Sequence record: OR699282.2
Source of the DNA: Escherichia phage BAU.Micro_ELP-22
Strand: one strand, 5' to 3'
Length of the DNA stretch: 64,000 nt
Part shown: piece by piece, positions 1 to 58,524 of the stretch
Layout of the letters: each line of letters opens with the position of its first letter
How positions within the stretch are numbered: the stretch's first letter is position 1
Notes under the pieces: generated by a model
What the model saw: the letters and a program-made list of their open reading frames with translations, nothing else
Told to the model about the DNA's origin: nothing
The model's database searches: none
Translations under genes and position numbers: made by a program

Positions 1-226
1 ATAATTTAACCAGTATTGATATCAGTGAGTTGTACGCGTATTATCAAAGTGCATTAGAGATGCATAAGTTATTTTTGAGTACAGATTTTGTTCTAAATTA
101 CAATTTTGAGGAATTTAAAAATTATAATTTAGTACAGAAATATGTAGTAGCAAAGTACATGTACAATCAAGGAATCAAAGGTTGCATCGAATTCAATACC
201 GTTCTTGTTTTAGTTGAGGTAATTTT

Positions 227-733
227 ATGCACCGCATGTCTGATTTAGAGTTCAGTTTAGATGCAGCATTTAAATTTGTTCACAAAATAGAAACAATATA
301 CAGTACATTATGTGCAATAACATCAGTATCAAAAGAGCTTGATGTTGGTGAAAGGTATCAGGTGTGGAATAATTCATTTTTTAATAAAGAACATTCTTCG
401 ACGGCATTTTATATTTTAGCATTTAATCCCAGCAATTGTTACCCAGAGAAGCATGAACGTTATCCGAATGACGACATGTGGTTTGAGTACAAAGAAGATT
501 CTGATATGTCGTCAATTGTAGTTCCTGATGATTTTAATGCACAAGATTTAACAGAAGAGTGGTGGTTCCAGCAGAATTTAGTACATGATGATATTGATTT
601 ATTTTTCTATATTGCATTTAAAATGCTTTATCACAACAATATAGTTAAAGAAAGTGTATCGTTTTCATGTCTATATATTGATGATTTGTACAATGAAATT
701 CAAATAAACATGCCCAGAACGCCTGTATCGTAA
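227..733 (+). CDS. hypothetical protein, FQ-motif paralog family
   Basis: 168-aa ORF; C-terminal motif EEWWFQQNLVHDD fits family consensus [DE][DE]x[YF]FQxS-[LIV]-[YH]-D. Confidence 0.6.
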   Translation: MHRMSDLEFSLDAAFKFVHKIETIYSTLCAITSVSKELDVGERYQVWNNSFFNKEHSSTAFYILAFNPSNCYPEKHERYPNDDMWFEYKEDSDMSSIVVPDDFNAQDLTEEWWFQQNLVHDDIDLFFYIAFKMLYHNNIVKESVSFSCLYIDDLYNEIQINMPRTPVS

Positions 734-785
734 GATATGGGCTTTTTTCGTTTTGGTATTGACATAGAAGACCAAAGCTGTTATC

Positions 786-1328
786 ATGTGTATTCATTTT
801 AAAGGAGAACATATAGTGAGTTTCATAATCCCAAGTACATACGAAGATGCATCAAGTGCAGTTCATAAGATTCATTATATTTTTAATTTAATTATTAGAT
901 CTGCAAAAATTAAAATGTATGCACCTCTTGTGACAAATAATCGAAATGAAGAAATTTTTATTAGCACAGACAAAATTATTTTTCCATATTTCAATGAAGA
1001 TAGATTGTGGTTCATACATTTAGCTGCATTACAAAAATATAAGATGTCAATTCGTAATAATTTGGTTATACCGTTATATCATCCCGATATTGGAGAGGAT
1101 GAGTATTTTCAGTACAGCACAGTACACCGCCATGAAGATATCTTTGCTGCTATGCTTATTGCTAAATTGAACACCGTTGATTTGGAGCAGTACAAATACA
1201 ATAATAAATCATGTAAGATCATAATCCCTGCATTCATAGCTCTTTATGATTATGTGGTGCATAACAAAAAAGATGATACATATGCTTTCAATGAAGAGTA
1301 TTTGAATTTTTTTAAGGAGAAAATATGA
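786..1328 (+). CDS. hypothetical protein, FQ-motif paralog family
   Basis: 180-aa ORF; motif GEDEYFQYSTVHRHED. Confidence 0.6.
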   Translation: MCIHFKGEHIVSFIIPSTYEDASSAVHKIHYIFNLIIRSAKIKMYAPLVTNNRNEEIFISTDKIIFPYFNEDRLWFIHLAALQKYKMSIRNNLVIPLYHPDIGEDEYFQYSTVHRHEDIFAAMLIAKLNTVDLEQYKYNNKSCKIIIPAFIALYDYVVHNKKDDTYAFNEEYLNFFKEKI

Positions 1329-1864
1329 GCAGTACAACAGTATCAAAAGTACAGAAAGCAATGTCATTCAATGAAATTGGTACATTTAAAGATAAGATCA
1401 TTGATTGCCTTGAATACATGATTTGTAGTAATATCGAAAGTATCGAGATATTTAACAAGACAAATCGCTCTTACCATATGATGTACATTGCAAACAATAA
1501 TGGTATCATTCCATTTATTTCGGATAGTACAATATGGTACGCATGTGATACGAAAAAATACACAGCAGGTTCGTATAGCTTAGGGTCACATACGGAATTG
1601 ATTATTCCTGAGCATTGTATGCAAGAAGAAGAATATTTTCAAATGCAATGTATACATTCACCATTAGTGTTGTTTAGTTTATATATTATACCTTATATCA
1701 CCAAATGTGTTCATGAGAATAAAGCTCCGTGGAATCATGAATTTGTATCGTTGAAGTTATTGTATAATGTATTAGTAGAATATTATGATTACAGGCACAA
1801 TGGTACAATCAGTGATGTATGGGAATTTGAATCGCTAAGGGTGAAAACATACACAGGTGAATGA
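1325..1864 (+). CDS. hypothetical protein, FQ-motif paralog family
   Basis: 179-aa ORF, ATGA start/stop overlap with upstream gene; motif QEEEYFQMQCIH. Confidence 0.6.
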   Translation: MSSTTVSKVQKAMSFNEIGTFKDKIIDCLEYMICSNIESIEIFNKTNRSYHMMYIANNNGIIPFISDSTIWYACDTKKYTAGSYSLGSHTELIIPEHCMQEEEYFQMQCIHSPLVLFSLYIIPYITKCVHENKAPWNHEFVSLKLLYNVLVEYYDYRHNGTISDVWEFESLRVKTYTGE

Positions 1865-2480
1865 TATGACCAGAATTAAAATGTATGATTTGATGCAGTA
1901 CAGTAAAATTGCCATTCCAGTGCTTAATAAAGTGCTGGATGCATTCATTGCCAAATACCCTGAGAATTCAGTGTTATGTATTCCATTTAGTGTTCCAGAT
2001 AAAGATGATATATTCCAAGTGAATGTCAGTACACGTGGTATTACATTACAGCAGAAATACATGGATACGGAATATTATGGAATAAAGTTGGATTCAGTAC
2101 AGGGTTCAAAATCAGCCTATGATTTTTTTGTTCCTAATAATATAGAGTCATGGGAAACAAACATTTCAAAGAAAGATGAAAATGATGTTCCTATTAGTGG
2201 TGTGTTCAACAATAAAGTTTTTTATTATTACGAAACCGACAAATTCCCTGAAGAGTTATATTACAATTCAGAAATGAATGAAGATGTAGATGCATTCATG
2301 TTTCAATTATCTTTAGTACATGATATCATTGATGTTCAAGAGTTAAGAGCAGAAATCAATTTAGCTAAAGAGTTATCGGACATGCTGCCACCGTTTAGTA
2401 TGCTTTTTTGTGAAGGTGGTTATTTTTCAAAAGAAGTGTTTGAACATTTCGTAGATGTTGTAAAAGGGTTGGATATATAG
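1857..2480 (+). CDS. hypothetical protein, FQ-motif paralog family
   Basis: 207-aa ORF; motif DAFMFQLSLVHDIID. Confidence 0.6.
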   Translation: MNDMTRIKMYDLMQYSKIAIPVLNKVLDAFIAKYPENSVLCIPFSVPDKDDIFQVNVSTRGITLQQKYMDTEYYGIKLDSVQGSKSAYDFFVPNNIESWETNISKKDENDVPISGVFNNKVFYYYETDKFPEELYYNSEMNEDVDAFMFQLSLVHDIIDVQELRAEINLAKELSDMLPPFSMLFCEGGYFSKEVFEHFVDVVKGLDI

Positions 2481-2481
2481 T

Positions 2482-2676
2482 ATGCTTACAGTTGATGTTA
2501 AACAAAAATACCGTAAGTTTGATTGGTTCACCGACAGTTTCCAGCTTGAATTATTACATTTGAATATCTGTGAAACATTATGTGCAGAAACACAAGATGA
2601 ATTTGATGATAGAGTGATGAACATAGTAATGCTTTCTTGCTTTAAACATTTTGGTTATTTTTTCGGACAGAATTGA
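2482..2676 (+). CDS. small hypothetical protein
   Basis: 64-aa ORF filling the gap between neighbouring genes, same strand. Confidence 0.35.
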   Translation: MLTVDVKQKYRKFDWFTDSFQLELLHLNICETLCAETQDEFDDRVMNIVMLSCFKHFGYFFGQN

Positions 2677-2684
2677 GGTAAAAA

Positions 2685-3203
2685 ATGCATCAACACAAGC
2701 ATCATTCATATGATTTTGCAATTAACATTATGAAGTTCATTCGAGCGTTGGAGGATGGGAAGCTTAGTCATAAGTACAGAAAAGAGGGTAACAATTGGTT
2801 CAGAAATGATGATGATGAGTTCAGAAGTCATAAGATTGTTTACAGCAATAATTACAGTGCCAATTACCTACAAGATGTAGTGATGTGTTTTGAATACGTG
2901 TTGCAGTTCAGGGGTTCAATCCAGGATGAGTTGATGGAGCACATGTACATCAGATACCTTCCAATGCTCAAAGATGAAAATGTATTATTAAATTCAATAT
3001 ACCAACGAGTTCGTGAAATTGAGTGCAGGGATATATTAGATACAGAAGAATCGTATTTCCAGCAATCCCTGATTTATGCACCTGATTTATTACAGGTACA
3101 TAATTTGTTTAATACATTACGTCAAAACATCAGTACAGACATATTTTTGTCATTATCGGATTATGATACATTTGTCAAAGATTTAGAGGAAATAGGTTTA
3201 TGA
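2685..3203 (+). CDS. hypothetical protein, FQ-motif paralog family
   Basis: 172-aa ORF; motif TEESYFQQSLIYAPD. Confidence 0.65.
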   Translation: MHQHKHHSYDFAINIMKFIRALEDGKLSHKYRKEGNNWFRNDDDEFRSHKIVYSNNYSANYLQDVVMCFEYVLQFRGSIQDELMEHMYIRYLPMLKDENVLLNSIYQRVREIECRDILDTEESYFQQSLIYAPDLLQVHNLFNTLRQNISTDIFLSLSDYDTFVKDLEEIGL

Positions 3204-3544
3204 GTCAATTTTCGGTTTATATAGTAAACGTCAGTAAAGATGGTAGTTTAATTGAATTTGATGTAGTTGATAACAATGATAATTCATATGGTATTAAGGT
3301 ACAGGACAATGATGTACAGTTCAGTACAAGGACAAATTTTGAGAATCCAGTCCAAGTTCCGAATTTCATAGAAGATGAAGCTGCACGATTCCAATACGAA
3401 ACGGCATATGACAATGTACATATGCATATTATTATGCAAACGAGTTTAGTTCAATTAGTTCCTTTGTTCAGACAAAATATATATGTACATGAAGTGTCGA
3501 TTAATGGCATTCAAAGTTCCGTTTTGTTCGGTACAAATATGTAA
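3200..3544 (+). CDS. hypothetical protein, degenerate FQ-motif
   Basis: 114-aa ORF; weak motif EAARFQYETAYDN. Confidence 0.5.
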   Translation: MSQFSVYIVNVSKDGSLIEFDVVDNNDNSYGIKVQDNDVQFSTRTNFENPVQVPNFIEDEAARFQYETAYDNVHMHIIMQTSLVQLVPLFRQNIYVHEVSINGIQSSVLFGTNM

Positions 3545-3554
3545 GGAAAGTACA

Positions 3555-4106
3555 ATGAGTTCAATGAGTTTATTAGATACATTAGAAAAAGACAGAAGTG
3601 CAATTAAGCGTTTAAAAGAGCAAGTACAAAAGATTGTATACAACGTTGATAAGTTTGAAGTCCCAGGAAGATTTGGTGATATTTCCCATACGGAGATCAA
3701 ATCCCTTAAGTCAGATTTGTTGATTAAAAATAAAAATGGGTTGATTTTAGTTTTGAGTTCAGATATGATGGGGGCAACACATAGTTATAATGCAGTATCG
3801 GTGCGTTCAGAGTGTGAAGGTATATATCTATCACAGGGTTTCAATAGCGAGACACAGGTTTGTTTTTGTGATGCAGTACATGACCCTATGAAGTTCACGA
3901 GAAGTGAAGCCCAAGCGTTATTAGAGCTATCAGACGAGAGTTTGTTTCAGTACAGTACAATGTATGACAATGATAAGCTTCGTTGTATGTACGCTGTAAA
4001 GCATTATACACAGGAGTTTTCTGGATTTGCATACCTTTTAGTTAGAACCAATACCAGATATATTGATATGTTAGAAGATTACATCGATAAAGTTGTTAAT
4101 GTATGA
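3555..4106 (+). CDS. hypothetical protein, FQ-motif paralog family
   Basis: ORF track start 3483 overlaps upstream gene; internal ATG 3555 preceded by AAGGAAAG chosen; motif SDESLFQYSTMYDND. Confidence 0.6.
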   Translation: MSSMSLLDTLEKDRSAIKRLKEQVQKIVYNVDKFEVPGRFGDISHTEIKSLKSDLLIKNKNGLILVLSSDMMGATHSYNAVSVRSECEGIYLSQGFNSETQVCFCDAVHDPMKFTRSEAQALLELSDESLFQYSTMYDNDKLRCMYAVKHYTQEFSGFAYLLVRTNTRYIDMLEDYIDKVVNV

Positions 4107-4296
4107 TGTATTATTATGGGATGGGATAATGCTGATGAAAGAGTTATTTGAAGATCAGTTCAATACATATGTGGATAATATTCTTTATTCCAGCCGTGCT
4201 AGTCAACGAGGAAATCGTGCTTACAATATAGATTACCTATTAGTGGTGCTGAGTTCACAGTACACCTACGCTGTACAGAGGACATATTATGAATAA
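4093..4296 (+). CDS. small hypothetical protein
   Basis: 67-aa ORF, overlapping start/stop chain with neighbours. Confidence 0.35.
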   Translation: MLMYDVLLWDGIMLMKELFEDQFNTYVDNILYSSRASQRGNRAYNIDYLLVVLSSQYTYAVQRTYYE

Positions 4297-4492
4297 TTTT
4301 AGAGATGTTGCTAAGGAGAAGTTCAAGTGCAGTTTAGATTACGGTTTAAATGATTTTCTTACATGCACAATGTACAGGAATGATGATTATGAGCAATCCG
4401 TAATTTCGTTGCACAGATATTTCGAAATAATTTACGCAAGATATCTTAGAAGGTTAGATGGGATAGGGGATTGGAATTATGATTACGTTTGA
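4289..4492 (+). CDS. small hypothetical protein
   Basis: 67-aa ORF in tandem chain. Confidence 0.35.
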   Translation: MNNFRDVAKEKFKCSLDYGLNDFLTCTMYRNDDYEQSVISLHRYFEIIYARYLRRLDGIGDWNYDYV

Positions 4493-4688
4493 AGAGCCGG
4501 AAGTGTTAAGTTCGCATAGTATTAAGGGTTTTGAATACATGATGGATTTGATTTTGAAGGATACATATTTGGTTCAGAGTGTAGATAATACGGTACACCG
4601 AGTATTGAATTTATACGAGATGACGAGTCGAAGGCTTTGTGCGATGAAAAGGATTGAAGAAATCAAGCTTTCTAGGCTGAATAAATAG
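4479..4688 (+). CDS. small hypothetical protein
   Basis: 69-aa ORF in tandem chain. Confidence 0.35.
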   Translation: MITFEEPEVLSSHSIKGFEYMMDLILKDTYLVQSVDNTVHRVLNLYEMTSRRLCAMKRIEEIKLSRLNK

Positions 4689-4884
4689 AGACGTTTCATT
4701 TTTACAGGCCGCAGGGGGTCAAAAAAATTTCCGCTGAAAAACATGCTAAGGTATATGTTTAATATAAAGTTTTATATTGTGTTTTTCAGAGTACAGTCCA
4801 TGTTTCCTGAAACAAAAAATACCCCGCCCCCGCAACGTGCTCCTTATATTGGAGTTTACCTTATTAATTATAGTAGAGATTAAG

Positions 4885-5262
4885 ATGGAAATAAAATATA
4901 ATGAATTTTGTGCAAGGACATGGATGTACACTGGTGAGTTAGTTACGCACTCTAACTTATACAAGGGTGATTTAAACTACGCTAGGGACAAGATTTTAAA
5001 GTACTGGAATGCTGACTTTTATTTGATGGATTTTAGTACTGGGTTTCATGGGATATCTATCGAGATGCCGGACTATACAGTACTTGATGATGCTGCACTG
5101 TTCCAGGAGGCATTAGTATTTGATAAGAAGTACATCTGTACATTAGAAGAGATGATTGAATTACAGCGTAGAATTAAATGTATTCACAGGGAATGTATAG
5201 ATATCTGGTGCAGTACTGGTGAGGCCGATTTCTGGAAATTTTTTAATCTAGGAGAAGAGTGA
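4885..5262 (+). CDS. hypothetical protein, FQ-motif family (LFQEALVFDKKY subgroup)
   Basis: In-frame ATG 4885 (MEIKYNEF) after a non-coding stretch; motif DDAALFQEALVFDKKYICTLEEMIELQ. Confidence 0.6.
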   Translation: MEIKYNEFCARTWMYTGELVTHSNLYKGDLNYARDKILKYWNADFYLMDFSTGFHGISIEMPDYTVLDDAALFQEALVFDKKYICTLEEMIELQRRIKCIHRECIDIWCSTGEADFWKFFNLGEE

Positions 5263-5618
5263 TGGAATTTGATTTTTTAATATCAGTACATACTTTCAAG
5301 CACAGTTATCAGTACTTTTGTAATTTAAACAAAGGTGATTTAATGCACAGTGCGAATGAGTATGTTCATTACACTCAGGGTAAATTTACATTCATTGATT
5401 ACAGTTCATTACAGTATCCACACCAAGATATGCCGGACTATACATTAATGGATACCGCAGAACTATTCCAAGAATCATTAGTATTTGATAAGAAGTACTT
5501 GTGTACATTTGAAGAAGTTATTGCAATACAAAATGAAATGAAAGAGTATGCTGCTTTGCATAAACCCAATGCAAGTATTAATCAAGAATACAAATTCAAT
5601 TTAGGAATTCAAGAATGA
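5259..5618 (+). CDS. hypothetical protein, FQ-motif family (LFQESLVFDKKY subgroup)
   Basis: 119-aa ORF; motif DTAELFQESLVFDKKYLCTFEEVIAIQNEMK; close paralog of the 4885 and 5615 genes. Confidence 0.7.
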   Translation: MMEFDFLISVHTFKHSYQYFCNLNKGDLMHSANEYVHYTQGKFTFIDYSSLQYPHQDMPDYTLMDTAELFQESLVFDKKYLCTFEEVIAIQNEMKEYAALHKPNASINQEYKFNLGIQE

Positions 5619-5974
5619 CATATGATTATTCTATGTACTATTATAAGTTACCTAAAGGATGGGACTTGTGCTGTAATCTTATTAAGGGCGACTCGGAACA
5701 TGAGTTGAGTTTATATATGCATTACAAAGATTCTTGTTTTAAATTTATTCATGTATCACATGACGACTATGACTATGAATCTGAGAGTCTTATAGATTAT
5801 ACAGTACTGGACGATGGCGAACTATTTCAGGCTGCATTAGTGTTTGATAAGAATAAGTACTCCTGTACATTTGAAGAAATGGTTTCTTTGCAAAATGAAA
5901 TGAAGAGATTTGAAAAAGAAAACGTATTTAATCCATCCCCATCAAGAACGAATAATTATTATTTCAATATATGA
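5615..5974 (+). CDS. hypothetical protein, FQ-motif family (LFQxALVFDK subgroup)
   Basis: 119-aa ORF; motif DDGELFQAALVFDKNKYSCTFEEMVSLQNEMK. Confidence 0.7.
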   Translation: MTYDYSMYYYKLPKGWDLCCNLIKGDSEHELSLYMHYKDSCFKFIHVSHDDYDYESESLIDYTVLDDGELFQAALVFDKNKYSCTFEEMVSLQNEMKRFEKENVFNPSPSRTNNYYFNI

Positions 5975-5983
5975 GATTATAAA

Positions 5984-6475
5984 ATGACATTACAGAGTTC
6001 ATTGGAAAAAGCAAAGAAGATTCATGAGTACATGAATATGGCAAAAGAAGGTTCAGTTTACGGTGTTTTCAAAGACACAAGTACTCAATATTATGTACCG
6101 GATAACCTCCTTTATAATGACTGCTCAGATACAGAAACGTGCGTACTGGATACAGAAACGTGCATACTAGATACCGACCCTAATGATTATGAATGCTTCA
6201 TTAATATGCATAATGAGTACATGGTCTATATTAATGATACAGATACCATCAACAGTACTGACAGCGATTCCAATGACATTATAATTCCGAGTGAAGTACT
6301 GGAAGGTCCGTGGGATAGTGAAGAGTATTACTTCCAACAAAGTACTGTATATGATAATGAAGTACTTGATGTTATTATAATTATGTGGTACTTTAAAAGT
6401 ATTGGTTCTGGGAACTTCTATTTCGATTACAAATACGTAAAGAAAACTGTAGATAACGGTATTAACAGGGGTTGA
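5984..6475 (+). CDS. hypothetical protein, FQ-motif family (EEYYFQ/WYFK subgroup)
   Basis: 163-aa ORF; N-term MTLQSSLEKAKKIHEYM; C-term VLEGPWDSEEYYFQQSTVYDNEVLDVIIIMWYFKSIG; contains in-frame 21-bp tandem repeat. Confidence 0.75.
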   Translation: MTLQSSLEKAKKIHEYMNMAKEGSVYGVFKDTSTQYYVPDNLLYNDCSDTETCVLDTETCILDTDPNDYECFINMHNEYMVYINDTDTINSTDSDSNDIIIPSEVLEGPWDSEEYYFQQSTVYDNEVLDVIIIMWYFKSIGSGNFYFDYKYVKKTVDNGINRG

Positions 6476-6476
6476 A

Positions 6477-6947
6477 ATGAGTTTAGAAAGAGCATTAGAG
6501 ATTGCGAAGTTAATTGATTTATGCAGCAAAGAAATTGTAGCAAATTGTCTTAATGGATATCTATTCAAGGAAGGTAAATCTTATTGTCGAATGAGATACG
6601 ATGACAGTAGTGAGTACATTCACATGTATGAAGAAAACTTAGATTCTTCTGAAACAACACTCAATGGGTGTGATGTTAATTTGGAAGATAATTACATGTA
6701 CTTCTGTCGTGATGCTGATATTTTAATACAAGATTCTGACATTATATCTGGTGCAGCAGAGAAACATCTTCCGTATTCAGTACTGGATAATGACTGGGGA
6801 AGTGAAGAGTTCTACTTCCAGCAGAATACTATCTACGAGGAATATGTGCTTGACAAGCTTGTCATTCTGTGGTACTTTAATAATACCGATTGTCCTAGCT
6901 TCTATCTGGACTTGGATCTACTACGAGTTATTAAAGAGGATATATGA
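6477..6947 (+). CDS. hypothetical protein, FQ-motif family (EEYYFQ/WYF subgroup)
   Basis: 156-aa ORF; motif DNDWGSEEFYFQQNTIYEEYVLDKLVILWYF. Confidence 0.75.
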   Translation: MSLERALEIAKLIDLCSKEIVANCLNGYLFKEGKSYCRMRYDDSSEYIHMYEENLDSSETTLNGCDVNLEDNYMYFCRDADILIQDSDIISGAAEKHLPYSVLDNDWGSEEFYFQQNTIYEEYVLDKLVILWYFNNTDCPSFYLDLDLLRVIKEDI

Positions 6948-7384
6948 GTTTAGCAAGTGCACTTAAACTGGCACACAAAATACATCACTTCCACGATAAC
7001 ATAAAAAGTGGTTTCTATGGTGATAAAGTAAGTGCATTTGGTAATGAGTATTATCTATCAGGTATAAAGACATACTCTGATGATATTTTACTTATGGGCC
7101 ATGATAAAGACAATACTATACAGTACTCTTCATGTAGTCAATATACTAGTTTCTTTGTATATATTCCAGGTACTAAGATTACTTTTGACACATCAAATAC
7201 ACCTGTTGACTTCGGGGTACTTGATGGGCCGTGGGGTACTGAAGAGTATTACTTCCAACAGAGTCTTATTTTTAACCAAGAAATGCTTGATTCCTTGGTT
7301 GTTTTGTGGTACTTTAAGGAATTGAATTTTGAACCCTTCTTCCTTGACTGGGGAGCATGTGAATATTTAAGTACAGGGGATTAG
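6944..7384 (+). CDS. hypothetical protein, FQ-motif family (EEYYFQ/WYFK subgroup)
   Basis: 146-aa ORF; motif LDGPWGTEEYYFQQSLIFNQEMLDSLVVLWYFK. Confidence 0.75.
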   Translation: MSLASALKLAHKIHHFHDNIKSGFYGDKVSAFGNEYYLSGIKTYSDDILLMGHDKDNTIQYSSCSQYTSFFVYIPGTKITFDTSNTPVDFGVLDGPWGTEEYYFQQSLIFNQEMLDSLVVLWYFKELNFEPFFLDWGACEYLSTGD

Positions 7385-7386
7385 TA

Positions 7387-7878
7387 ATGTCATTAGAAAG
7401 TGCATTGAAAGAAGCAAAGAAGATTCATGAGTACATGATTATGGTACAAGAAGGTTCAGTGCCTGGTGTGTATAAAACATCTGATACTGAATTTTTTGTA
7501 AAAGACCGCGACGATTATGATGAGTCAGAGATACATGCAGAAACGTTAGTACTACACACTGATACGGGTGATACTGATGACTGTGAATATCATATGTACA
7601 ATCAGTACATTAGTTATTGTAGAGATGAAGATATTATAATTTACAGCCCTGATTACGATGATTATGACACAATCATTCCGTATTCAGTACTAGAAGGTCC
7701 GTGGGATAGTGAAGAATATTACTTCCAGAATAGTACGTTGTACAATGAAGAAGAATTAGATGTTATTGTAATTATGTGGTACTTTAAAAGTATTGGTTCT
7801 GATAGTTTCTATTTCGATTATGAATACGTAGAGAATACTGTAGGGGAAGATAATGTCATTACAAAGTGCTCTGGATAA
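7387..7878 (+). CDS. hypothetical protein, FQ-motif family (EEYYFQ/WYFK subgroup)
   Basis: 163-aa ORF; N-term MSLESALKEAKKIHEYM; motif LEGPWDSEEYYFQNSTLYNEEELDVIVIMWYFKSIG; about 100 nt near-identical to 6295-6410. Confidence 0.75.
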   Translation: MSLESALKEAKKIHEYMIMVQEGSVPGVYKTSDTEFFVKDRDDYDESEIHAETLVLHTDTGDTDDCEYHMYNQYISYCRDEDIIIYSPDYDDYDTIIPYSVLEGPWDSEEYYFQNSTLYNEEELDVIVIMWYFKSIGSDSFYFDYEYVENTVGEDNVITKCSG

Positions 7879-8296
7879 AGCAAAAGAACTACAGGTATAT
7901 ATTGAAGATATCAAGGCTGGGAAGTTCGAAGAAGTATACAAAGCCGAGAATGGTAACTACTACAAGGATAGTGATTTTGCTACAACTACAGTTATTCTTG
8001 GGTTGAATTCCAAAAGTCCCGCAGATTTTTCACAATACAATCCAGATGCAGAATTTATCAGTTATGCTTATGGTGGTGAAATCCGTTTTTATAATCGCAG
8101 CAGACCTTTAAAATTGAACTTTGAAGTACTGAAAGGTCCGTGGGATAGTGAAGAGTATTACTTTCAGAATAGTACTTTGTATGATGATGAAGTACTAGAT
8201 ACTTTAGTTATTATGTGGTACTTTAAAAGTATTGATAGTACAAGGTTTTATTTGGATTATGAATATGTACGTGCCGAACATAAGGGTAAACGATGA
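7853..8296 (+). CDS. hypothetical protein, FQ-motif family (EEYYFQ/WYFK subgroup)
   Basis: 147-aa ORF; N-term MSLQSALDKAKELQ; motif LKGPWDSEEYYFQNSTLYDDEVLDTLVIMWYFKSID. Confidence 0.7.
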   Translation: MSLQSALDKAKELQVYIEDIKAGKFEEVYKAENGNYYKDSDFATTTVILGLNSKSPADFSQYNPDAEFISYAYGGEIRFYNRSRPLKLNFEVLKGPWDSEEYYFQNSTLYDDEVLDTLVIMWYFKSIDSTRFYLDYEYVRAEHKGKR

Positions 8297-8607
8297 AATT
8301 ATTATACAGTATTCAGTACATTCCAGGTACAATTAGTTTAATGTATTTCTTCGATCATGATAATTTCCAGCACCTTGCCGTTAGAAGATGTAATGAATCT
8401 TTAATGATTGAATATCTTCACGATTGTGATTATCTTCCTGACTTCCTTGAATGTGATTACAGAGATGATCATGAATCATTTATTTTTCAGGAATCACTTG
8501 TATGGGATAAGAGAATTAATTTTTATGCTTTACTTGAGATACAAAAACATGTGAAGTACTACTGGGATTACTTAATTACCCAAAAATATATAGAGATTGA
8601 AATATAA
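8293..8607 (+). CDS. hypothetical protein, FQ-motif family
   Basis: 104-aa ORF; motif DHESFIFQESLVWDKRINF. Confidence 0.65.
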   Translation: MKLLYSIQYIPGTISLMYFFDHDNFQHLAVRRCNESLMIEYLHDCDYLPDFLECDYRDDHESFIFQESLVWDKRINFYALLEIQKHVKYYWDYLITQKYIEIEI

Positions 8608-9080
8608 TGTACGAAAGTGATCTTAAGCACGCTGAGGAATTAGTTAATATAGTAAAGTTCTTTCAAAATAATGTAAAGTACTTAGACGACAAAGGGGCAT
8701 ATATTAGTACTATAAGTGTTGGTACAGATATTCTAGGATTAGGTAATGAATATAAGTACGAGTCCCATGATTATGATTTGGAATTCAAGTACTTCGAATG
8801 GAATCCTGGAACTTTCTATTCAATCGATGAAAGTGGGAAATATTTTGAATTCACCGAAGAAGACGTACTATTCTTAAATTCAGAAGATGCTTACTTCCAG
8901 TACAGTACTATATACCCAAATAGTGCATTAAGATCTTTAGTAGTTTTTAATGCATTTCTGAAAGAGAACTTTAATAATTCTATATTCATTGATTTAAATT
9001 ATGTATATGAACTAAATCAGGTGATATATATGGAGTCCAGAAAAAATGAGTTACGAAAGTGCAATCAAGAAAGCAAATGA
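8607..9080 (+). CDS. hypothetical protein, FQ-motif family
   Basis: 157-aa ORF; motif SEDAYFQYSTIYPNSALRSLVVF; N-term IVKFFQNN shared with next gene. Confidence 0.65.
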   Translation: MYESDLKHAEELVNIVKFFQNNVKYLDDKGAYISTISVGTDILGLGNEYKYESHDYDLEFKYFEWNPGTFYSIDESGKYFEFTEEDVLFLNSEDAYFQYSTIYPNSALRSLVVFNAFLKENFNNSIFIDLNYVYELNQVIYMESRKNELRKCNQESK

Positions 9081-9492
9081 TATTCTAAAAGTTGTTAAGT
9101 TCTTCAAAGAAAATCCTGAATACGTAGATGATGAACGAAGAGAAGTTTCTAATGGCACGAAGATTACAATTGATTCTTTATTTGATACTAGCAACAACAA
9201 CTGTAGTACTATTGAATTAGCATACGATTATATTTCATTGAACAGAAAATATGATGAAGTTACGATAGAGCGTCATGAGAATGAAGAATCTTTTAAAATT
9301 TCTGATATTTTATCTCTGAGTACAGAAGAAGGGTACTTCCAGGGAAGTACTGTTTATAATGAAGGAACACTAGACAATCTATGTACATTTAGTGTACTAT
9401 ATCAGAAGTCAGTACTGGATATATTTTATCTAGACACTGAAAAACTTGATAGGTTAGTTGATTTCGTTACTATAGAAGAGGCATCCGTTTGA
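9046..9492 (+). CDS. hypothetical protein, FQ-motif family
   Basis: 148-aa ORF; motif TEEGYFQGSTVYNEGTLDNL; three AGTACTG copies within 60 nt just downstream (9560-9602). Confidence 0.65.
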   Translation: MSYESAIKKANDILKVVKFFKENPEYVDDERREVSNGTKITIDSLFDTSNNNCSTIELAYDYISLNRKYDEVTIERHENEESFKISDILSLSTEEGYFQGSTVYNEGTLDNLCTFSVLYQKSVLDIFYLDTEKLDRLVDFVTIEEASV

Positions 9493-10025
9493 GAAAAATT
9501 AACATTAATGATTATGATGCATTACAAGATTTATCAAAAAAGATTCGCACTATCGTACCAGTACTGAAGAAATGCAGTACTGGTTTAATCGATCCTAGTA
9601 CTGTTGTTAATGAGAAGTACAATTTTCATTATGTATTACAGGGTACTGGGGCATTCCAGAAGTGTGAGGTGCGTGAGACACACGTAATTGATACATCATT
9701 GTTTTCTATTGGTGCACCTGTGTCGAATAATACTATTTTCCTAGACAACGCTGGAAATATTCAACAATTAACATTTAAGAAAAGGAAAAAGAACAATAAC
9801 ATTGGTGTGTATGCGATGAAGTGGGGTCAACCTGATTTGAAGCGTGAAATTCACATCCCTAAGTACAATTACAATGCATTTGACGAACAGTGTTTTCAAC
9901 TATCGTGTACTGACCCTGACTATGCTATTATTCAGTTCTATATGGAATTGCAGATAGCATTTAACAGTAATTTGTATATTAACTTATTGGCGATGAACAT
10001 CGATGAAGTATTCAAAAACATTTAA
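9489..10025 (+). CDS. hypothetical protein, degenerate FQ-motif
   Basis: 178-aa ORF; motif FDEQCFQLSCTDPDY. Confidence 0.55.
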   Translation: MRKININDYDALQDLSKKIRTIVPVLKKCSTGLIDPSTVVNEKYNFHYVLQGTGAFQKCEVRETHVIDTSLFSIGAPVSNNTIFLDNAGNIQQLTFKKRKKNNNIGVYAMKWGQPDLKREIHIPKYNYNAFDEQCFQLSCTDPDYAIIQFYMELQIAFNSNLYINLLAMNIDEVFKNI

Positions 10026-10221
10026 TCGAATTGAATACATGAGAACTGTGAGTGCAGTGTGGGACATATGGTTCACTACTAAACCAAAAATGGATTACCA
10101 TGACTTTAAGCTCTTGTTCTTCGTTGGCTCTAACAAACAGGATGTTGCAATGAAGGGTTATATTCAGCACTTACAGGAACTAATCCAGAAGAGAATATAT
10201 GAAAATAATAGACCAAAATGA
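10003..10221 (+). CDS. small hypothetical protein
   Basis: 72-aa ORF between larger genes. Confidence 0.35.
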   Translation: MKYSKTFNRIEYMRTVSAVWDIWFTTKPKMDYHDFKLLFFVGSNKQDVAMKGYIQHLQELIQKRIYENNRPK

Positions 10222-10390
10222 CATTGCTAAACTATTCAATATATATTCTACTAGAATGATGCAAACAGACTCATATAGTACTGAATTCAAAGAGTTGAAA
10301 GTCCTGATGTACTTGGGAACCCAATATCAGGAACAAGTTATTTTGGAATATATTAATTCGCTGAAGAAGGATATCCGTTATGTACGATGA
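10199..10390 (+). CDS. small hypothetical protein
   Basis: 63-aa ORF between larger genes. Confidence 0.35.
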   Translation: MKIIDQNDIAKLFNIYSTRMMQTDSYSTEFKELKVLMYLGTQYQEQVILEYINSLKKDIRYVR

Positions 10391-10940
10391 TTTAGATCTT
10401 GCGTTTGAACGTATGGTAATTTTAATGCAATGTGCAGAAATGCATGAAACAATCCGTCGCACCAAAGGGATTGAATATACAAGTAAACTATTCTCATACG
10501 AAAGTCGTCGAGGGATGGATCATTTTTACTGCACTGATTGTTCAAAGTTTTCAGTACTGAAATATTATCATCCTACTGTTTCCAATAATAGTTTAATATC
10601 CACATATGACGGTGATCTGTTTAGTGTAATGTATGACACATTACATCCATCAATTTCAATCTATAAAGATTGCGATAGTAGTTTATCGTATATAATTGAA
10701 GATTACTTATCTCCTAATACTGAAGAGAATATTTTTCAGAACAGTGTGTTGTATGATGAATTAAGTATAAAATGCATCTATATGTTCAATAAGTTAAAAG
10801 AGTACGCCGATAATAATTACTTAATTGATAAGTTAGCAGTATTGTCTGTTTCCGTTTTTAATACAAATGACATTGATATGAAATACTATAATGAGATTTG
10901 TAAAGTACATCATATGTATAAGGAACTATTATGTCAATAA
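10380..10940 (+). CDS. hypothetical protein, FQ-motif paralog family
   Basis: 186-aa ORF; motif TEENIFQNSVLYDELSIKCIYMF. Confidence 0.6.
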   Translation: MYDDLDLAFERMVILMQCAEMHETIRRTKGIEYTSKLFSYESRRGMDHFYCTDCSKFSVLKYYHPTVSNNSLISTYDGDLFSVMYDTLHPSISIYKDCDSSLSYIIEDYLSPNTEENIFQNSVLYDELSIKCIYMFNKLKEYADNNYLIDKLAVLSVSVFNTNDIDMKYYNEICKVHHMYKELLCQ

Positions 10941-11533
10941 ATGCAAATAAATGTTGTAGTGCAGATGTGCATTTGTTTTTTAAGAAATTAGCAAATGATA
11001 TTATATATATGCAGGAAATGATTTATCACAAACGAGCGGATTTAGAAAAAGCATTAGTACAGTTCTCATTTATGCTTGATGGTGATATATTTCTAGAGAG
11101 TGATGCATTGCGAATAGTATTAGACAAAAATGCTAAAAGATTTTTATTTCATATAGATAATAAATTATGTTCCTCCGTATGTCGTACTTTTTATAATCGT
11201 GATTCGGACTTATATCAATTCCTTTATTCTAAAGGTGCAGTAGAAGCATCATATGGTGATGGTTATGCCCTAGGAAAGAGTATTCCATTTATGAAATCAT
11301 TTAAAATAGAACACATCAGTACTGATGAAGATGTAATGTTCACAAATGATATAACTATGGGACGTGAAGATGCAATGCGATATATTACAAATTCTATGCA
11401 TACATTCTTTCAACGAACAGAATTTGATAATGTATATATATCAAATGTAAATATTTTCAATGACCTGTGTCAGTACTTGAAAAGTGTTTGTGATTTTGAT
11501 GAAAGCTATTGTAAGCTATACACTGAGGTATAA
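10931..11533 (+). CDS. hypothetical protein
   Basis: 200-aa ORF, no clear motif. Confidence 0.5.
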   Translation: MSINANKCCSADVHLFFKKLANDIIYMQEMIYHKRADLEKALVQFSFMLDGDIFLESDALRIVLDKNAKRFLFHIDNKLCSSVCRTFYNRDSDLYQFLYSKGAVEASYGDGYALGKSIPFMKSFKIEHISTDEDVMFTNDITMGREDAMRYITNSMHTFFQRTEFDNVYISNVNIFNDLCQYLKSVCDFDESYCKLYTEV

Positions 11534-11538
11534 AACCA

Positions 11539-11901
11539 ATGAACACATTAAGTATTACATACTATACAACTAAAAAATTAGTTACTTGTTTAATATCATT
11601 GAAGACAAATCATGATGATATGTTTGATATGGCGGCATATGAATTAGAATTATCAGAAGATGGCTTCAAGAGCTATGAAGTATATAGCTATGTTCGTGAA
11701 GATGTAATTGACACTACACTAATGCAAGAGGATGAGTTATTCCAAGAAAGTTTAGTATGGGATAATAAGTACGATTGTAACTTTGATTTCTTATGTTTAA
11801 TCCAGAAAGAAATGAAAAGAATCTTTGATAATTATCCAGTGAAGAGATTGAGTACTGGACCGGAGCAGTACAGGAGAATTTTATTCCGTTATGAAGACTG
11901 A
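11539..11901 (+). CDS. hypothetical protein, FQ-motif family (LFQESLVWD subgroup)
   Basis: 120-aa ORF; motif QEDELFQESLVWDNKYDCNFDFLCLIQKEMK. Confidence 0.7.
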   Translation: MNTLSITYYTTKKLVTCLISLKTNHDDMFDMAAYELELSEDGFKSYEVYSYVREDVIDTTLMQEDELFQESLVWDNKYDCNFDFLCLIQKEMKRIFDNYPVKRLSTGPEQYRRILFRYED

Positions 11902-12226
11902 ATTAGTGAAAGTAATGTACGCTACTCATATTAAACTACTACTTGTGAAATTTGATTATAATAAAAAACATAATGATTTCTATACTTTAATTCGTGATGA
12001 AAATACATTCTCCTTGCGATGCAACAATATACCGTTGAAGATAAATGATTTTACTTCACTTGACGAGGGTGAATTATTTCAAGAATCATTAGTTTTTAAT
12101 AGTAATATAAAAATTGATATAGAAGTTATTAAAAAATACCAGATTTTATTGAACAAAATTATGAATTGTTATCCATGTGAAATAGGTGGTCATATGCAGT
12201 TCAAATCAAAAATGTATGAATTATGA
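11891..12226 (+). CDS. hypothetical protein, FQ-motif family
   Basis: 111-aa ORF; motif DEGELFQESLVFNSN. Confidence 0.65.
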   Translation: MKTELVKVMYATHIKLLLVKFDYNKKHNDFYTLIRDENTFSLRCNNIPLKINDFTSLDEGELFQESLVFNSNIKIDIEVIKKYQILLNKIMNCYPCEIGGHMQFKSKMYEL

Positions 12227-12233
12227 GGTTTAT

Positions 12234-12770
12234 ATGTTAGATGAAAAAATGAACAATGGAACACAATATAATCATCTTAAGTTAGATACATTCGAATCAG
12301 CTATCAGTACTGCACAAGATATAATTGATATTATCAAGTTCATTAAAGAAAATAAGTTCAAATGTTTGAAAATACTAAATCGTTCAATGTACCGTGATAA
12401 CAATATTCATGTATCAGTACGTAGACCGAAAGATAAAGAAAGTGGGAGAGATTTCTATAACAACAGTGAGCAGTTCGAATGTGAATATGATCCAGAATTC
12501 AGAGGCGGTTTCATGTGTTACAGTATAAAGGATACCTCACACATTGAGATACGTTCATCGAAAGGTGGCATACGTACATTAGAGTTCATTGATATAGTTT
12601 TAAATCAGGAATACTACTTTCAACTATCATTATTGTTTCCTGCATACGATTTAGGAGTTCTATTCATGTATAAGTACTTTTATGAGCACTGGAATGAAGA
12701 CTTCTATCTGGACTTAGAAGATTACCAATTAGTTTGGAAAGAAATGGTAGAACTTCGCAATCCCTCTTGA
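12234..12770 (+). CDS. hypothetical protein, FQ-motif paralog family
   Basis: In-frame ATG 12234 with GAGG 8 nt upstream preferred over track start 12186; motif NQEYYFQLSLLFPAYD. Confidence 0.6.
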   Translation: MLDEKMNNGTQYNHLKLDTFESAISTAQDIIDIIKFIKENKFKCLKILNRSMYRDNNIHVSVRRPKDKESGRDFYNNSEQFECEYDPEFRGGFMCYSIKDTSHIEIRSSKGGIRTLEFIDIVLNQEYYFQLSLLFPAYDLGVLFMYKYFYEHWNEDFYLDLEDYQLVWKEMVELRNPS

Positions 12771-12796
12771 CACCCACCGATTCTTTGTGATATAAT
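12767..12796 (+). promoter_or_regulatory. sigma70-like promoter with extended -10
   Basis: TTGACA (12767-12772), 18-nt spacer, TGaTATAAT (-10 hexamer 12791-12796); followed by inverted repeat CCCTTTA/TAAAGGG (12796-12818) in the leader. Confidence 0.6.
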
Positions 12797-22125: not shown

Positions 22126-22661
22126 TGACTGACCCGATGGTAGCACTGGCACGTACTAAGTTACTATTAAAGATTGGTGAGATTTTTACGGTTCTTCTGT
22201 CCAATAATATTGATATTACTGAGCTAGATATTAAGCAACCGTGGGAAGTGACTATGTTCTCGGCGTTCCACCGATTGTCATATAAAGGTGAAAGTGTTCT
22301 TGATTTTAACCCTAAAGCAAAATTCATAGATTATGCTGCGTTGTACAGAGAGTTGCACCGAAATATTTATTCCGGTTGTATAACCAATAACTTCAAAGAA
22401 ATTAAAGTTCAAACTGCATCACATGAGTTCAATGATTTACTTTATCCAGAATTTAATCTAACGGAAGAATTACTCTTTCAGTACTCGTTAATTCTCACAA
22501 ATCTCGAAACGCTAGAGTACTACAAAGAGTTAGTAGATATTTTTATGAATACACGTCTTTCAAAAGATATTGTGATATTCTGGTATACAGAGCATGTTAC
22601 GGAGGAATTGCTTACTGAATTTCTTCTAAATATGACAGCTATAAAGGAGAAGTTATGTTAG
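22125..22661 (+). CDS. hypothetical protein, FQ-motif paralog family
   Basis: 178-aa ORF; motif TEELLFQYSLILTNLETLEYY. Confidence 0.6.
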   Translation: MTDPMVALARTKLLLKIGEIFTVLLSNNIDITELDIKQPWEVTMFSAFHRLSYKGESVLDFNPKAKFIDYAALYRELHRNIYSGCITNNFKEIKVQTASHEFNDLLYPEFNLTEELLFQYSLILTNLETLEYYKELVDIFMNTRLSKDIVIFWYTEHVTEELLTEFLLNMTAIKEKLC

Positions 22662-27530: not shown

Positions 27531-27560
27531 GACATACCATAAGTTTATGATATAATGTAA

Positions 27561-27594
27561 GGTGACAGCAGAATATGTTGTCGCCTTTTTTTTT
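27561..27594 (+). terminator. putative rho-independent terminator
   Basis: GGTGAC...GTCGCC hairpin (one G-U pair) followed by T10; preceded by TGATATAAT at 27548-27556. Confidence 0.5.
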
Positions 27595-28132
27595 AATCCT
27601 GAAAGGTTCCATATGGAAATGATTAAAGCCTAATCCACTCGAAAAGTAGAGGGTAGATGAGTAGTCCTTTCAGTACGAACAGCAAATGAAACCCGTTAGA
27701 TGATGGCATAGTTTGAACCACTCACGGCAATGCGGCTGTATAAAGAACTCCAATAGGATAAAGAGAGTTCCTCGATAGACATATAAGGATCGCACCTTAC
27801 CAATTATCTAAGGGAGATTTCATGAGAAATTTGCGGTCGTAATTTATACAAAATAGTTGCGTCCAAAATTCGTGAAATCAAATACAAGTACTGGTCATAT
27901 GGTATTTGTATTATGTGTCGGGATGTTTAAGACCGACGACCGTTGCTACAAGAACCGCGATAGAGAGAAACAGAGCAACCCGCTTTCGTCTCGTAAGAGA
28001 ATTCGTGATATGAACTATGTGAAGGCCACCAGCGTCAAACTTTTTTGTTCTTTCCCCTGCGGGGGGATGAAATATGCTCAAGCAAACCCCGTCAATATTA
28101 ATTAAAAGAAAATAGTACTTGTAGAATTAGAC

Positions 28133-42102: not shown

Positions 42103-42431
42103 TGTCAATGAAACCACTAATTCAACATAATATTTTTTATAGGTCATTATTCAAAATTCAAGATGATTTTTATCAGACGTTGAGTAATGATCTTATAGGT
42201 AAAACTGTACGATATTCGGAACAATACATCAAACGTATGACAAGTGAGTATATTGACCCTGAATACGAATACGACATTGAACACATTAATCCCAATACTA
42301 GAATGAAAATCATTGAGATATTTAAGAATGGGAGAACTATAGGTGCTGAAATTGAGTACTTGAATTGTGATTGTTACATAGATACCGAGTTAAGTTTGGA
42401 TTATCTTGTTTTAGTGGATGATGAGGAATAA
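42102..42431 (+). CDS. hypothetical protein, small paralog family 3
   Basis: 109-aa ORF; core LSNDLIGKTVRYSEQY. Confidence 0.55.
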   Translation: MSMKPLIQHNIFYRSLFKIQDDFYQTLSNDLIGKTVRYSEQYIKRMTSEYIDPEYEYDIEHINPNTRMKIIEIFKNGRTIGAEIEYLNCDCYIDTELSLDYLVLVDDEE

Positions 42432-58307: not shown

Positions 58308-58401
58308 AGCAATAAACTGGAGTTCATGATAAATACTTTCATAAGAATAATAATACTTTTTATTAATTTAAAAAGAACTCCATGTGTTATTTCAGTTTTT
58401 C

Positions 58402-58429
58402 ATCCCTGTCTTTTGGCAGGGATTTTTTA
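58402..58429 (+). terminator. rho-independent terminator
   Basis: ATCCCTG-tcttttgg-CAGGGAT hairpin followed by TTTTTT. Confidence 0.7.
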
Positions 58430-58524
58430 TATCTATATCTTGACAAAAGGAACAAATCATGAGAACATGTATTAAAGGAAGAATGACTTTCCATTAGGTT
58501 ATTTTAACTTAAAGGAGATTTCAT

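Follow-up and report, generated by a model that had tools for sequence, protein, structure and literature searches.

The gap at positions 4689–4884 of the 64,000-nt stretch of Escherichia phage BAU.Micro_ELP-22 analysed here (OR699282.2; hereafter the window) is non-coding and conserved among related jumbo phages. In the reading that we prefer, and to which we give a probability of about one half, it forms a long conserved leader for the block of paralogous genes downstream. This leader would be transcribed from an internal late promoter, ATAAATA, located on the upstream edge of the gap, while two slippage-prone GC tracts mark the breakpoints of rearrangements. The gap is thus regarded as a conserved, non-coding regulatory spacer and not as a new kind of element.

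Genomic context of the gap

The closest match to the window is the Asteriusvirus jumbo coliphage SP27 (99.4% identity), and the next best matches are UB, JP4, PBECO4 and 121Q. The GC content of the window is 32.9%. A 1-kb query around the gap matched 32 phage records, all of them Asteriusvirus jumbo phages of Escherichia or Salmonella, and the gap alone was placed at 33 places in 32 phage records. The gap is 196 nt long and extends from the TAG codon of orfB (4686–4688) to the ATG codon of orfC (4885). The upstream gene, orfB (4479–4688, + strand, 69 aa), is present in the ORF list and is annotated in SP27 and in other relatives. It has no paralog within the array, and its final codons, AAT AAA TAG, contain the ATAAATA heptamer. 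The downstream gene, orfC (4885–5262, + strand, 125 aa), is the first of three consecutive family C paralogs and matches phrog_15629, a family of unknown function. The phrog_15629 profile aligns from residue 5 of the protein starting at ATG 4885, and this start is therefore favoured over the later ATG of some annotations.

All-against-all BLASTP of the window ORFs showed that the paralog families are interleaved. Family B flanks the gap on both sides and the three-gene family C run starts at 4885. Thus the first-pass annotation was right to describe a gap of about 195 bp without a credible ORF interrupting a paralog array: the ORFs found inside are not conserved in frame. Profile searches assigned neither a Pfam nor a PHROG family to orfB. 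For the flanking proteins the Pfam search gave zero matches, and the PHROGs found were of unknown function only. The products annotated at this locus in relatives are all 'hypothetical protein', except for an 'amidohydrolase 3' on the phAPEC6 homologue of orfC.

Gene gain and loss in the paralog array occurs at gene boundaries. Extra small genes are found directly after orfC (window position 5262) in phAPEC6, G17, SHEFM2K, slurp01, BF17, Turkey3 and 121Q, and are missing from the window. They measure 162 and 372 nt in phAPEC6 (2478–3007 of the fetched locus) and 225 and 369 nt in 121Q. Elsewhere, at window position 42261, a tandem GAATAC hexamer has one copy fewer than in SP27, a 6-nt in-frame indel inside a coding region. 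A replication origin was also considered for the gap and rejected, as the cumulative GC skew climbs steadily with no turning point.

Conservation across relatives and rearranged loci

The locus was fetched from 21 relatives, and the alignment was built from the 18 colinear ones and the window. Without its two GC tracts, the gap has a mean pairwise identity of 0.956 and 87% invariant columns. The corresponding proportions in the three flanking genes are 79% for codon positions 1 and 2 (Fisher p = 0.02) and 68% for third positions (p = 8e-6). Conservation in homologous phages, whose absence the first-pass annotation had proposed to count against its own reading, is thus observed across relatives. 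Three segments can be distinguished between and around the tracts. At the 5′ side, a -35-like hexamer, TTTACA (4701–4706, + strand), is replaced by TTGACA in nine relatives and by TTCACA in seven. The conserved AT-rich core (4721–4819, + strand) contains an A7T3 stretch, an inverted repeat formed by CTGAAAAACA (4734–4743) and TGTTTTTCAG (4780–4789), and several TAnnnT hexamers. The last segment (4838–4884, + strand), which comprises the 5′ leader and translation initiation region of orfC, is about 98% identical across relatives; it carries a weak hairpin, GCTCC-N7-GGAGT (4839–4855), and a GAGA Shine-Dalgarno-like element (4876–4879). The level of conservation is uneven along the locus, the 3′ end of orfB equalling the gap, so that part of the signal may reflect recombination history and mosaic ancestry rather than selection. 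The search for distant homologues returned 121Q alone from IMG/VR and 121Q-like contigs alone from a metagenome scan.

Three phages carry rearranged versions of the locus. In A4 the genes differ on both sides, and the homology (94%) extends from the G run to the Shine-Dalgarno region. SD-1_S14 has a deletion running from inside orfB to the A run just 5′ of the C tract, with loss of the motif, the G tract and the core. In ph0011 the sequence from about 4698 to the C tract has been swapped for unrelated AT-rich sequence, ATAATTA stands at the position of the motif, and ACACAATCAC stands in place of the C tract. The breakpoints of SD-1_S14 and ph0011 both sit at the A run directly before the C tract, and the GC tracts thus coincide with rearrangement breakpoints. 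The segment common to these three phages is limited to about the last 50–70 nt before the ATG. Since SD-1_S14 lacks the motif and ph0011 has ATAATTA, the module is dispensable.

A candidate late promoter at the upstream boundary

The heptamer ATAAATA at 4681–4687 (+ strand) lies 2 nt outside the interval originally reported, where it overlaps the AAT AAA TAG end of orfB. It corresponds to the T4-type late-promoter motif recognized by gp55-like sigma factors. For CBB and GAP32, two related phages of the Rak2-like group, the same motif has been predicted as a late promoter, and it resembles the T4 late promoter TATAAATA (PMC5259590). In the window, ATAAATA is found only four times on both strands, against 48 ± 7.7 copies expected from dinucleotide-preserving shuffles, a depletion of about 12-fold; for comparison, the two strands carry 23 and 34 copies of ATAAATT. 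The depletion agrees with counterselection of stray late promoters in an early region. Two of the four copies are on the + strand. The copy at 4681–4687 is invariant in 19 relatives, and a – strand copy at 22364 is not conserved even in SP27. The sole other + strand copy, at 58329–58335, forms codons 2–3 of a 49-aa ORF (58326–58475) beside the PhoH-like gene region.

The distribution of the motif was examined in 50 kb of phAPEC6 carrying structural and replication genes. There, 15 of the 20 ATAAATA copies fall in the 9% of the sequence that is intergenic (binomial p = 3e-12). All but one of these 15 are followed by an annotated gene on the same strand at a distance of 17–111 nt; for the remaining one the distance is 546 nt. 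The genes downstream of phAPEC6 motifs include those for the major head, the portal, the prohead protease and the baseplate wedge. Moreover, phAPEC6 gp237c matches the profiles phrog_12791, 'sigma factor for late transcription' (E = 3e-154), and phrog_234, 'late sigma transcription factor' (8e-18); neither a direct sequence search of the PDB nor Pfam gave a match for it. The site at 4681 therefore combines a core motif on the sense strand with the presence in the genus of a gp55-like sigma factor, and the motif is avoided elsewhere and concentrated upstream of late genes. Several late-promoter motifs in phAPEC6 (120000–169999) are immediately followed by a short hairpin that would lie at the 5′ end of the late transcript, for example ATAAATAACGGGGAACACTATGTTCCCC. 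Such pairs are found at locus positions 12218, 19501, 23553 (–) and 9532 (+), and the hairpins may be 5′ stabilising stem-loops.

The sequence context of the site is less typical. It lies 197 nt from the ATG, and 13 of the 15 intergenic phAPEC6 copies are 17–65 nt from their gene. The base following the motif is a G, found at none of the 15 intergenic phAPEC6 sites and at none of 35 CBB sites; the A4 version has a T. The base preceding it is A and not T, the motif of the genus being a 7-mer. The first-pass annotation had placed in the gap a promoter separating expression blocks of the array. The idea finds support in ATAAATA, just outside the interval, and not in the features on which it had been based. 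No promoter map, transcript map or transcriptome for any Asteriusvirus was found in the literature searched.

The gap lies within a predicted early transcription unit

The transcription unit that includes the gap opens with a terminator hairpin followed by T6 (721–742), and then a consensus sigma-70 promoter, TTGACA-17-TATCAT, with a TG extension (759–787). Beyond it, one has to go to 12767 for another strong promoter and to 16615 for another terminator. As no strong promoter or terminator lies between, the gap is located within an early polycistronic unit of about 12 kb. A scan of the gap found no sigma-70 promoter above the shuffled background and no terminator. TTTACA lacks a convincing -10 partner, the best being AAAAAT, with the G run in the spacer; this pair has 9 of 12 matches, no better than in shuffled sequence.

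Other promoter classes were also considered. The CBB-type promoter TGAAAC-N17-TATAAT was rejected: the window contains 13 matches, 12.9 being expected, and the gap no usable one. The phage possesses a promoter class of its own, with a -35 element of the GGGACA, GAGACA or GGAACA kind, 17 nt, and TATAAT with a TGA extension, nearly always TGATATAAT. It parallels the TGAAACG class predicted in phage CBB. The window contains 19 copies of TGNTATAAT against 10 expected, and 16 of these are on the + strand, spanning 12788–58078 (for example 24088, 25848, 27548, 33632, 41129, 43379, 48833 and 58070). The GGGACA-N17-TATAAT class is absent from 1–12787, and hence from the gap. The TATA-containing stretch that the first-pass annotation took as a possible promoter therefore forms neither a sigma-70 promoter nor one of the phage's own type.

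One of these sites opens another region with little coding capacity. From 27531 to 28132, about 600 nt contain no solid ORF. The region starts with the phage-type promoter TGAGAC-N17-TATAAT (TGATATAAT at 27548), and a strong terminator-like hairpin with T9 follows immediately (27564–27597). About 500 nt of GC-richer sequence come after it, closing in a CCCCTGCGGGGGG hairpin immediately upstream of ATG 28067. The SP27 record has no annotation in this region, and no Rfam match was obtained for 27531–28132, which is a candidate ncRNA or attenuated leader.

A realistic, though not a probable, alternative is that the gap lacks its own promoter and serves simply as intercistronic spacer and 5′ leader in the early polycistronic mRNA. 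In that case ATAAATA would be incidental, resulting from the Asn-Lys-stop end of orfB, and conservation of the gap would serve the translation initiation of orfC or the processing and stability of the mRNA. The atypical distance and the G after the motif agree with this explanation, as does the failure to find a sigma-70 promoter, a phage-type promoter or a terminator in the gap. The 47 nt beside the ATG are the only segment kept in every relative, SD-1_S14 and ph0011 included. Since the motif overlaps the final codons of orfB, coding constraint could also explain its invariance. However, a heptamer avoided on both strands (4 copies against 48) is unlikely to be silent where a sense copy is tolerated. 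The A4 locus provides a second argument. In that phage, the same leader is preceded by an ATAAATA in intergenic DNA, with about 29 nt to the end of the G run (31 nt for the window); the 30 nt separating motif and G run cannot be aligned. The gene upstream is unrelated to orfB, and no near match to it was found in any other phage record. Coding constraint therefore cannot explain the A4 copy. These observations lead us to prefer an internal late promoter.

RNA structure and coding potential

The first-pass annotation had also suggested a regulatory structure or a small RNA, with structure prediction as a way to check it. An Rfam search of the gap returned nothing at the gathering score (best E-value 0.26), and a tRNA/tmRNA search of the gap found none. 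Minimum free energies are ordinary, with single-sequence z values of -0.49 and -0.46 on the two strands, so that neither strand folds better than shuffled sequence. RNAalifold, run on 16 distinct sequences, proposed 40 pairs with 0 compensatory changes; 31 of the pairs never vary and the power of detection is low. With 31 of 40 pairs invariant, the alignment speaks neither for nor against RNA structure. The 10-nt perfect inverted repeat of the AT-rich core (4734–4743/4780–4789) was rejected as a structure, being disrupted in clade 2 with no compensation. An alternative hairpin pairing 4807–4821 with 4780–4789 is broken in clade 2 as well.

It is nevertheless conceivable that the gap encodes a small ncRNA of about 170 nt, extending from about 4693 to the weak hairpin and U-rich tail at 4839–4866 and either acting in trans or forming a cis-regulatory structure. 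The strong conservation of a gap without a conserved ORF would fit such an RNA. RNAalifold also proposes long-range helices in invariant segments, TAAGGTA/TACCTTA, TTTAATATAA/TTATATTGGA and a further helix that covers the Shine-Dalgarno region of orfC. In the distant relative PA5oct, ncRNAs defined by RNA-seq occur in ORF-free regions (PMC7318152). We nonetheless consider a small RNA unlikely in view of the Rfam result, the ordinary fold energies, the lack of compensatory pairs and the absence of a credible terminator. Moreover, SD-1_S14 and ph0011 have lost the 5′ arms of the proposed helices and keep the 3′ arms, and the inverted repeat is broken in clade 2. The suggestion of a regulatory structure or small RNA was thus not upheld.

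The gap contains just two ORFs, one of 46 aa starting with ATG (4743–4883) and a TTG-initiated extension of orfC. The 46-aa ORF is annotated in a few records; it was rejected as a gene, since in clade 2 it meets a stop after 10 codons and others carry frameshifts in it. We likewise discarded the possibility that translation reads through the orfB TAG and continues in the open frame that follows, a frame that relatives do not preserve. A repeated element or decayed paralog was also rejected, BLASTN and TBLASTX showing no similarity of the gap to the paralogs or to the rest of the window. A related proposal, that the gap is the decaying remnant of a former gene whose conservation merely reflects the close kinship of the sequenced phages, appears quite unlikely to us. 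It could account for the 46-aa ORF being intact in one clade and annotated in several records, and for the pseudogene-like frameshifting indels in the GC tracts and A runs. However, without its tracts the gap exceeds third codon positions in conservation, and positions 1 and 2 slightly, no similarity was detected within the window, and A4 keeps the module precisely despite its different flanking genes.

The GC tracts are hypervariable

Two tracts stand out in the gap from an AT-rich window, being the short tracts with the highest GC density in the 64 kb. The first (4707–4720, + strand), GGCCGC-A-GGGGG-TC or GGCCGCAGGGGGTC, ends in a hypervariable homopolymer. The second, TACCCCGCCCCCGCAACG (4820–4837, + strand), is a CCG/CCC simple sequence that occurs in at least 8 versions among relatives, including CCCCGCCCCCGC, CCCCGCCCCGC, CCCCGCCGCG, CCCCGCCGCCG and CCCCGCCACCG. 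Both GGCCGCAGGGGGTC and TACCCCGCCCCCGCAACG are unique in the window even when 2–3 mismatches are allowed (0 expected), and they represent two of the four clusters in the window in which G or C fills 11 or more of 12 positions. No uninterrupted G/C run in the 64 kb is longer than CCCCGCCCCCGC. Runs of at least five G or five C number eight in the 64 kb, two of them within the gap (chance for a given 196-nt interval, 2.6e-4). The first-pass annotation had singled out both tracts as unusual and C-rich: both are genuine GC outliers, but on the + strand the first is a G run and only the second is rich in C.

The final G run is 4, 5, 6, 7, 8, 9 or 10 nt long among relatives and is preceded by A or T. 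The G tract differs in every pair of phages that are at least 98.5% identical across about 940 flanking columns. Thus the window and SP27, with 99.78% identity in the flanks, have A followed by G5 and T followed by G8, respectively. Over 50 kb aligned to SP27, this 3-nt change is the largest homopolymer indel in near-identical context, the remaining ones being changes of 1–2 T in terminator tails. Three metagenome contigs related to 121Q have runs of 6, 6 and 7 G. Sequencing error may add noise to these lengths, but cannot explain a range of 4–10. The G run therefore shows a feature of phase-variable homopolymer loci, a length that varies faster than its flanks. The two tracts together have an identity of 0.85 with 47% invariant columns, the lowest conservation in the gap. 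Because tract length varies among near-identical phages, the GC tracts are unlikely to be sequence-specific signals. Pairing of the G tract with the C tract was considered and rejected: merely GGGGU/ACCCC (5–6 bp) is possible, and the lengths of the tracts do not co-vary.

A poly-G contingency switch, in which the length of the run would set a promoter spacer or the structure of the late leader so that expression of the paralog block differs among particles, seems highly improbable. The + strand would supply the postulated promoter TTGACA-(n+11)-AAAAAT, or the – strand TTGACC-(n+8)-AAAAAT with a TG extension. The variability of the run in every close pair is in keeping with such a switch, as are the perfect TTGACA found directly upstream in nine relatives and the spacers of 16–18 nt obtained at n = 5–7 (+) and n = 8–10 (–). 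Against it, the -10 candidates are poor, promoter-like sites are no more frequent than in shuffled sequence, the -35 hexamer itself is inconstant, with G, T or C at its third base, and some of the length differences could be assembly errors. We are very doubtful of the extended version, a contingency switch made of the poly-G run and the variable C tract 100 nt downstream, by which sibling virions differing in paralog expression would hedge their bets against varied hosts.

A model for the paralog block

The preferred reading of an internal late promoter can be formulated as follows. Late in infection, RNA polymerase carrying the phage gp55-like sigma factor would read ATAAATA. In T4, late transcription starts about 6 nt downstream of the motif. 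By analogy, the transcript would start near 4693 and cover orfC and the paralog genes that follow, preceded by a leader of about 190 nt. The early unit would thereby be split in two: the genes at 786–4688 would be expressed early only, and those from 4885 onwards both early, via read-through, and late. The last 47 nt of the gap would act as the translation initiation region of orfC. The GC tracts would have no sequence-specific role; being slippage-prone, they would change rapidly in length and provide breakpoints for deletions and replacements.

If correct, this model would provide a first anchor for a temporal map of the Asteriusvirus paralog arrays, indicating which half is also made late. 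Phages of this genus are under development for therapy and biocontrol. The motif statistics, that is the 12-fold depletion of ATAAATA and the GGGACA-N17-TATAAT promoters, could be used to annotate transcription units throughout the genus. The hypervariable G tract is a handy strain marker, and the site may be misassembled or heterogeneous. The current understanding of phage biology is unchanged by these results.

Comparison with known systems

In Neisseria, Haemophilus and Campylobacter, poly-G and poly-C contingency tracts are located in promoter spacers or in 5′ coding regions. The G run of the gap is similar to them in mutability only: with 4–10 residues it outpaces the surrounding change, and it adjoins a -35-like hexamer. 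Unlike these bacterial tracts, it is carried by a virulent jumbo phage.

A second comparison can be made with the PeSL (promoter-early stem-loop) cassettes, which mediate modular shuffling in T4-type phages (PMC2839356, PMC4122927). Like them, the gap is a conserved intergenic regulatory sequence among small ORFan or paralog genes, with breakpoints of indels or replacements inside it, here those of A4, SD-1_S14 and ph0011. However, PeSL is a repeated motif that combines an early sigma-70 promoter with a stem-loop. The gap is single-copy per genome, with no second copy in the 64-kb window, and has neither a sigma-70 promoter nor a stable stem-loop or terminator.

The T4-type late promoters, together with the motif of CBB and GAP32, offer the closest parallel to our preferred reading. 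The site at 4681–4687 differs from them in being 197 nt from the start codon, in overlapping a stop codon and in being followed by G, and the genes surrounding it form a block of small ones, presumably early and of unknown function. It shares with them the same core motif, a gp55-like late sigma factor, avoidance of the motif elsewhere, and independence from a -35 element.
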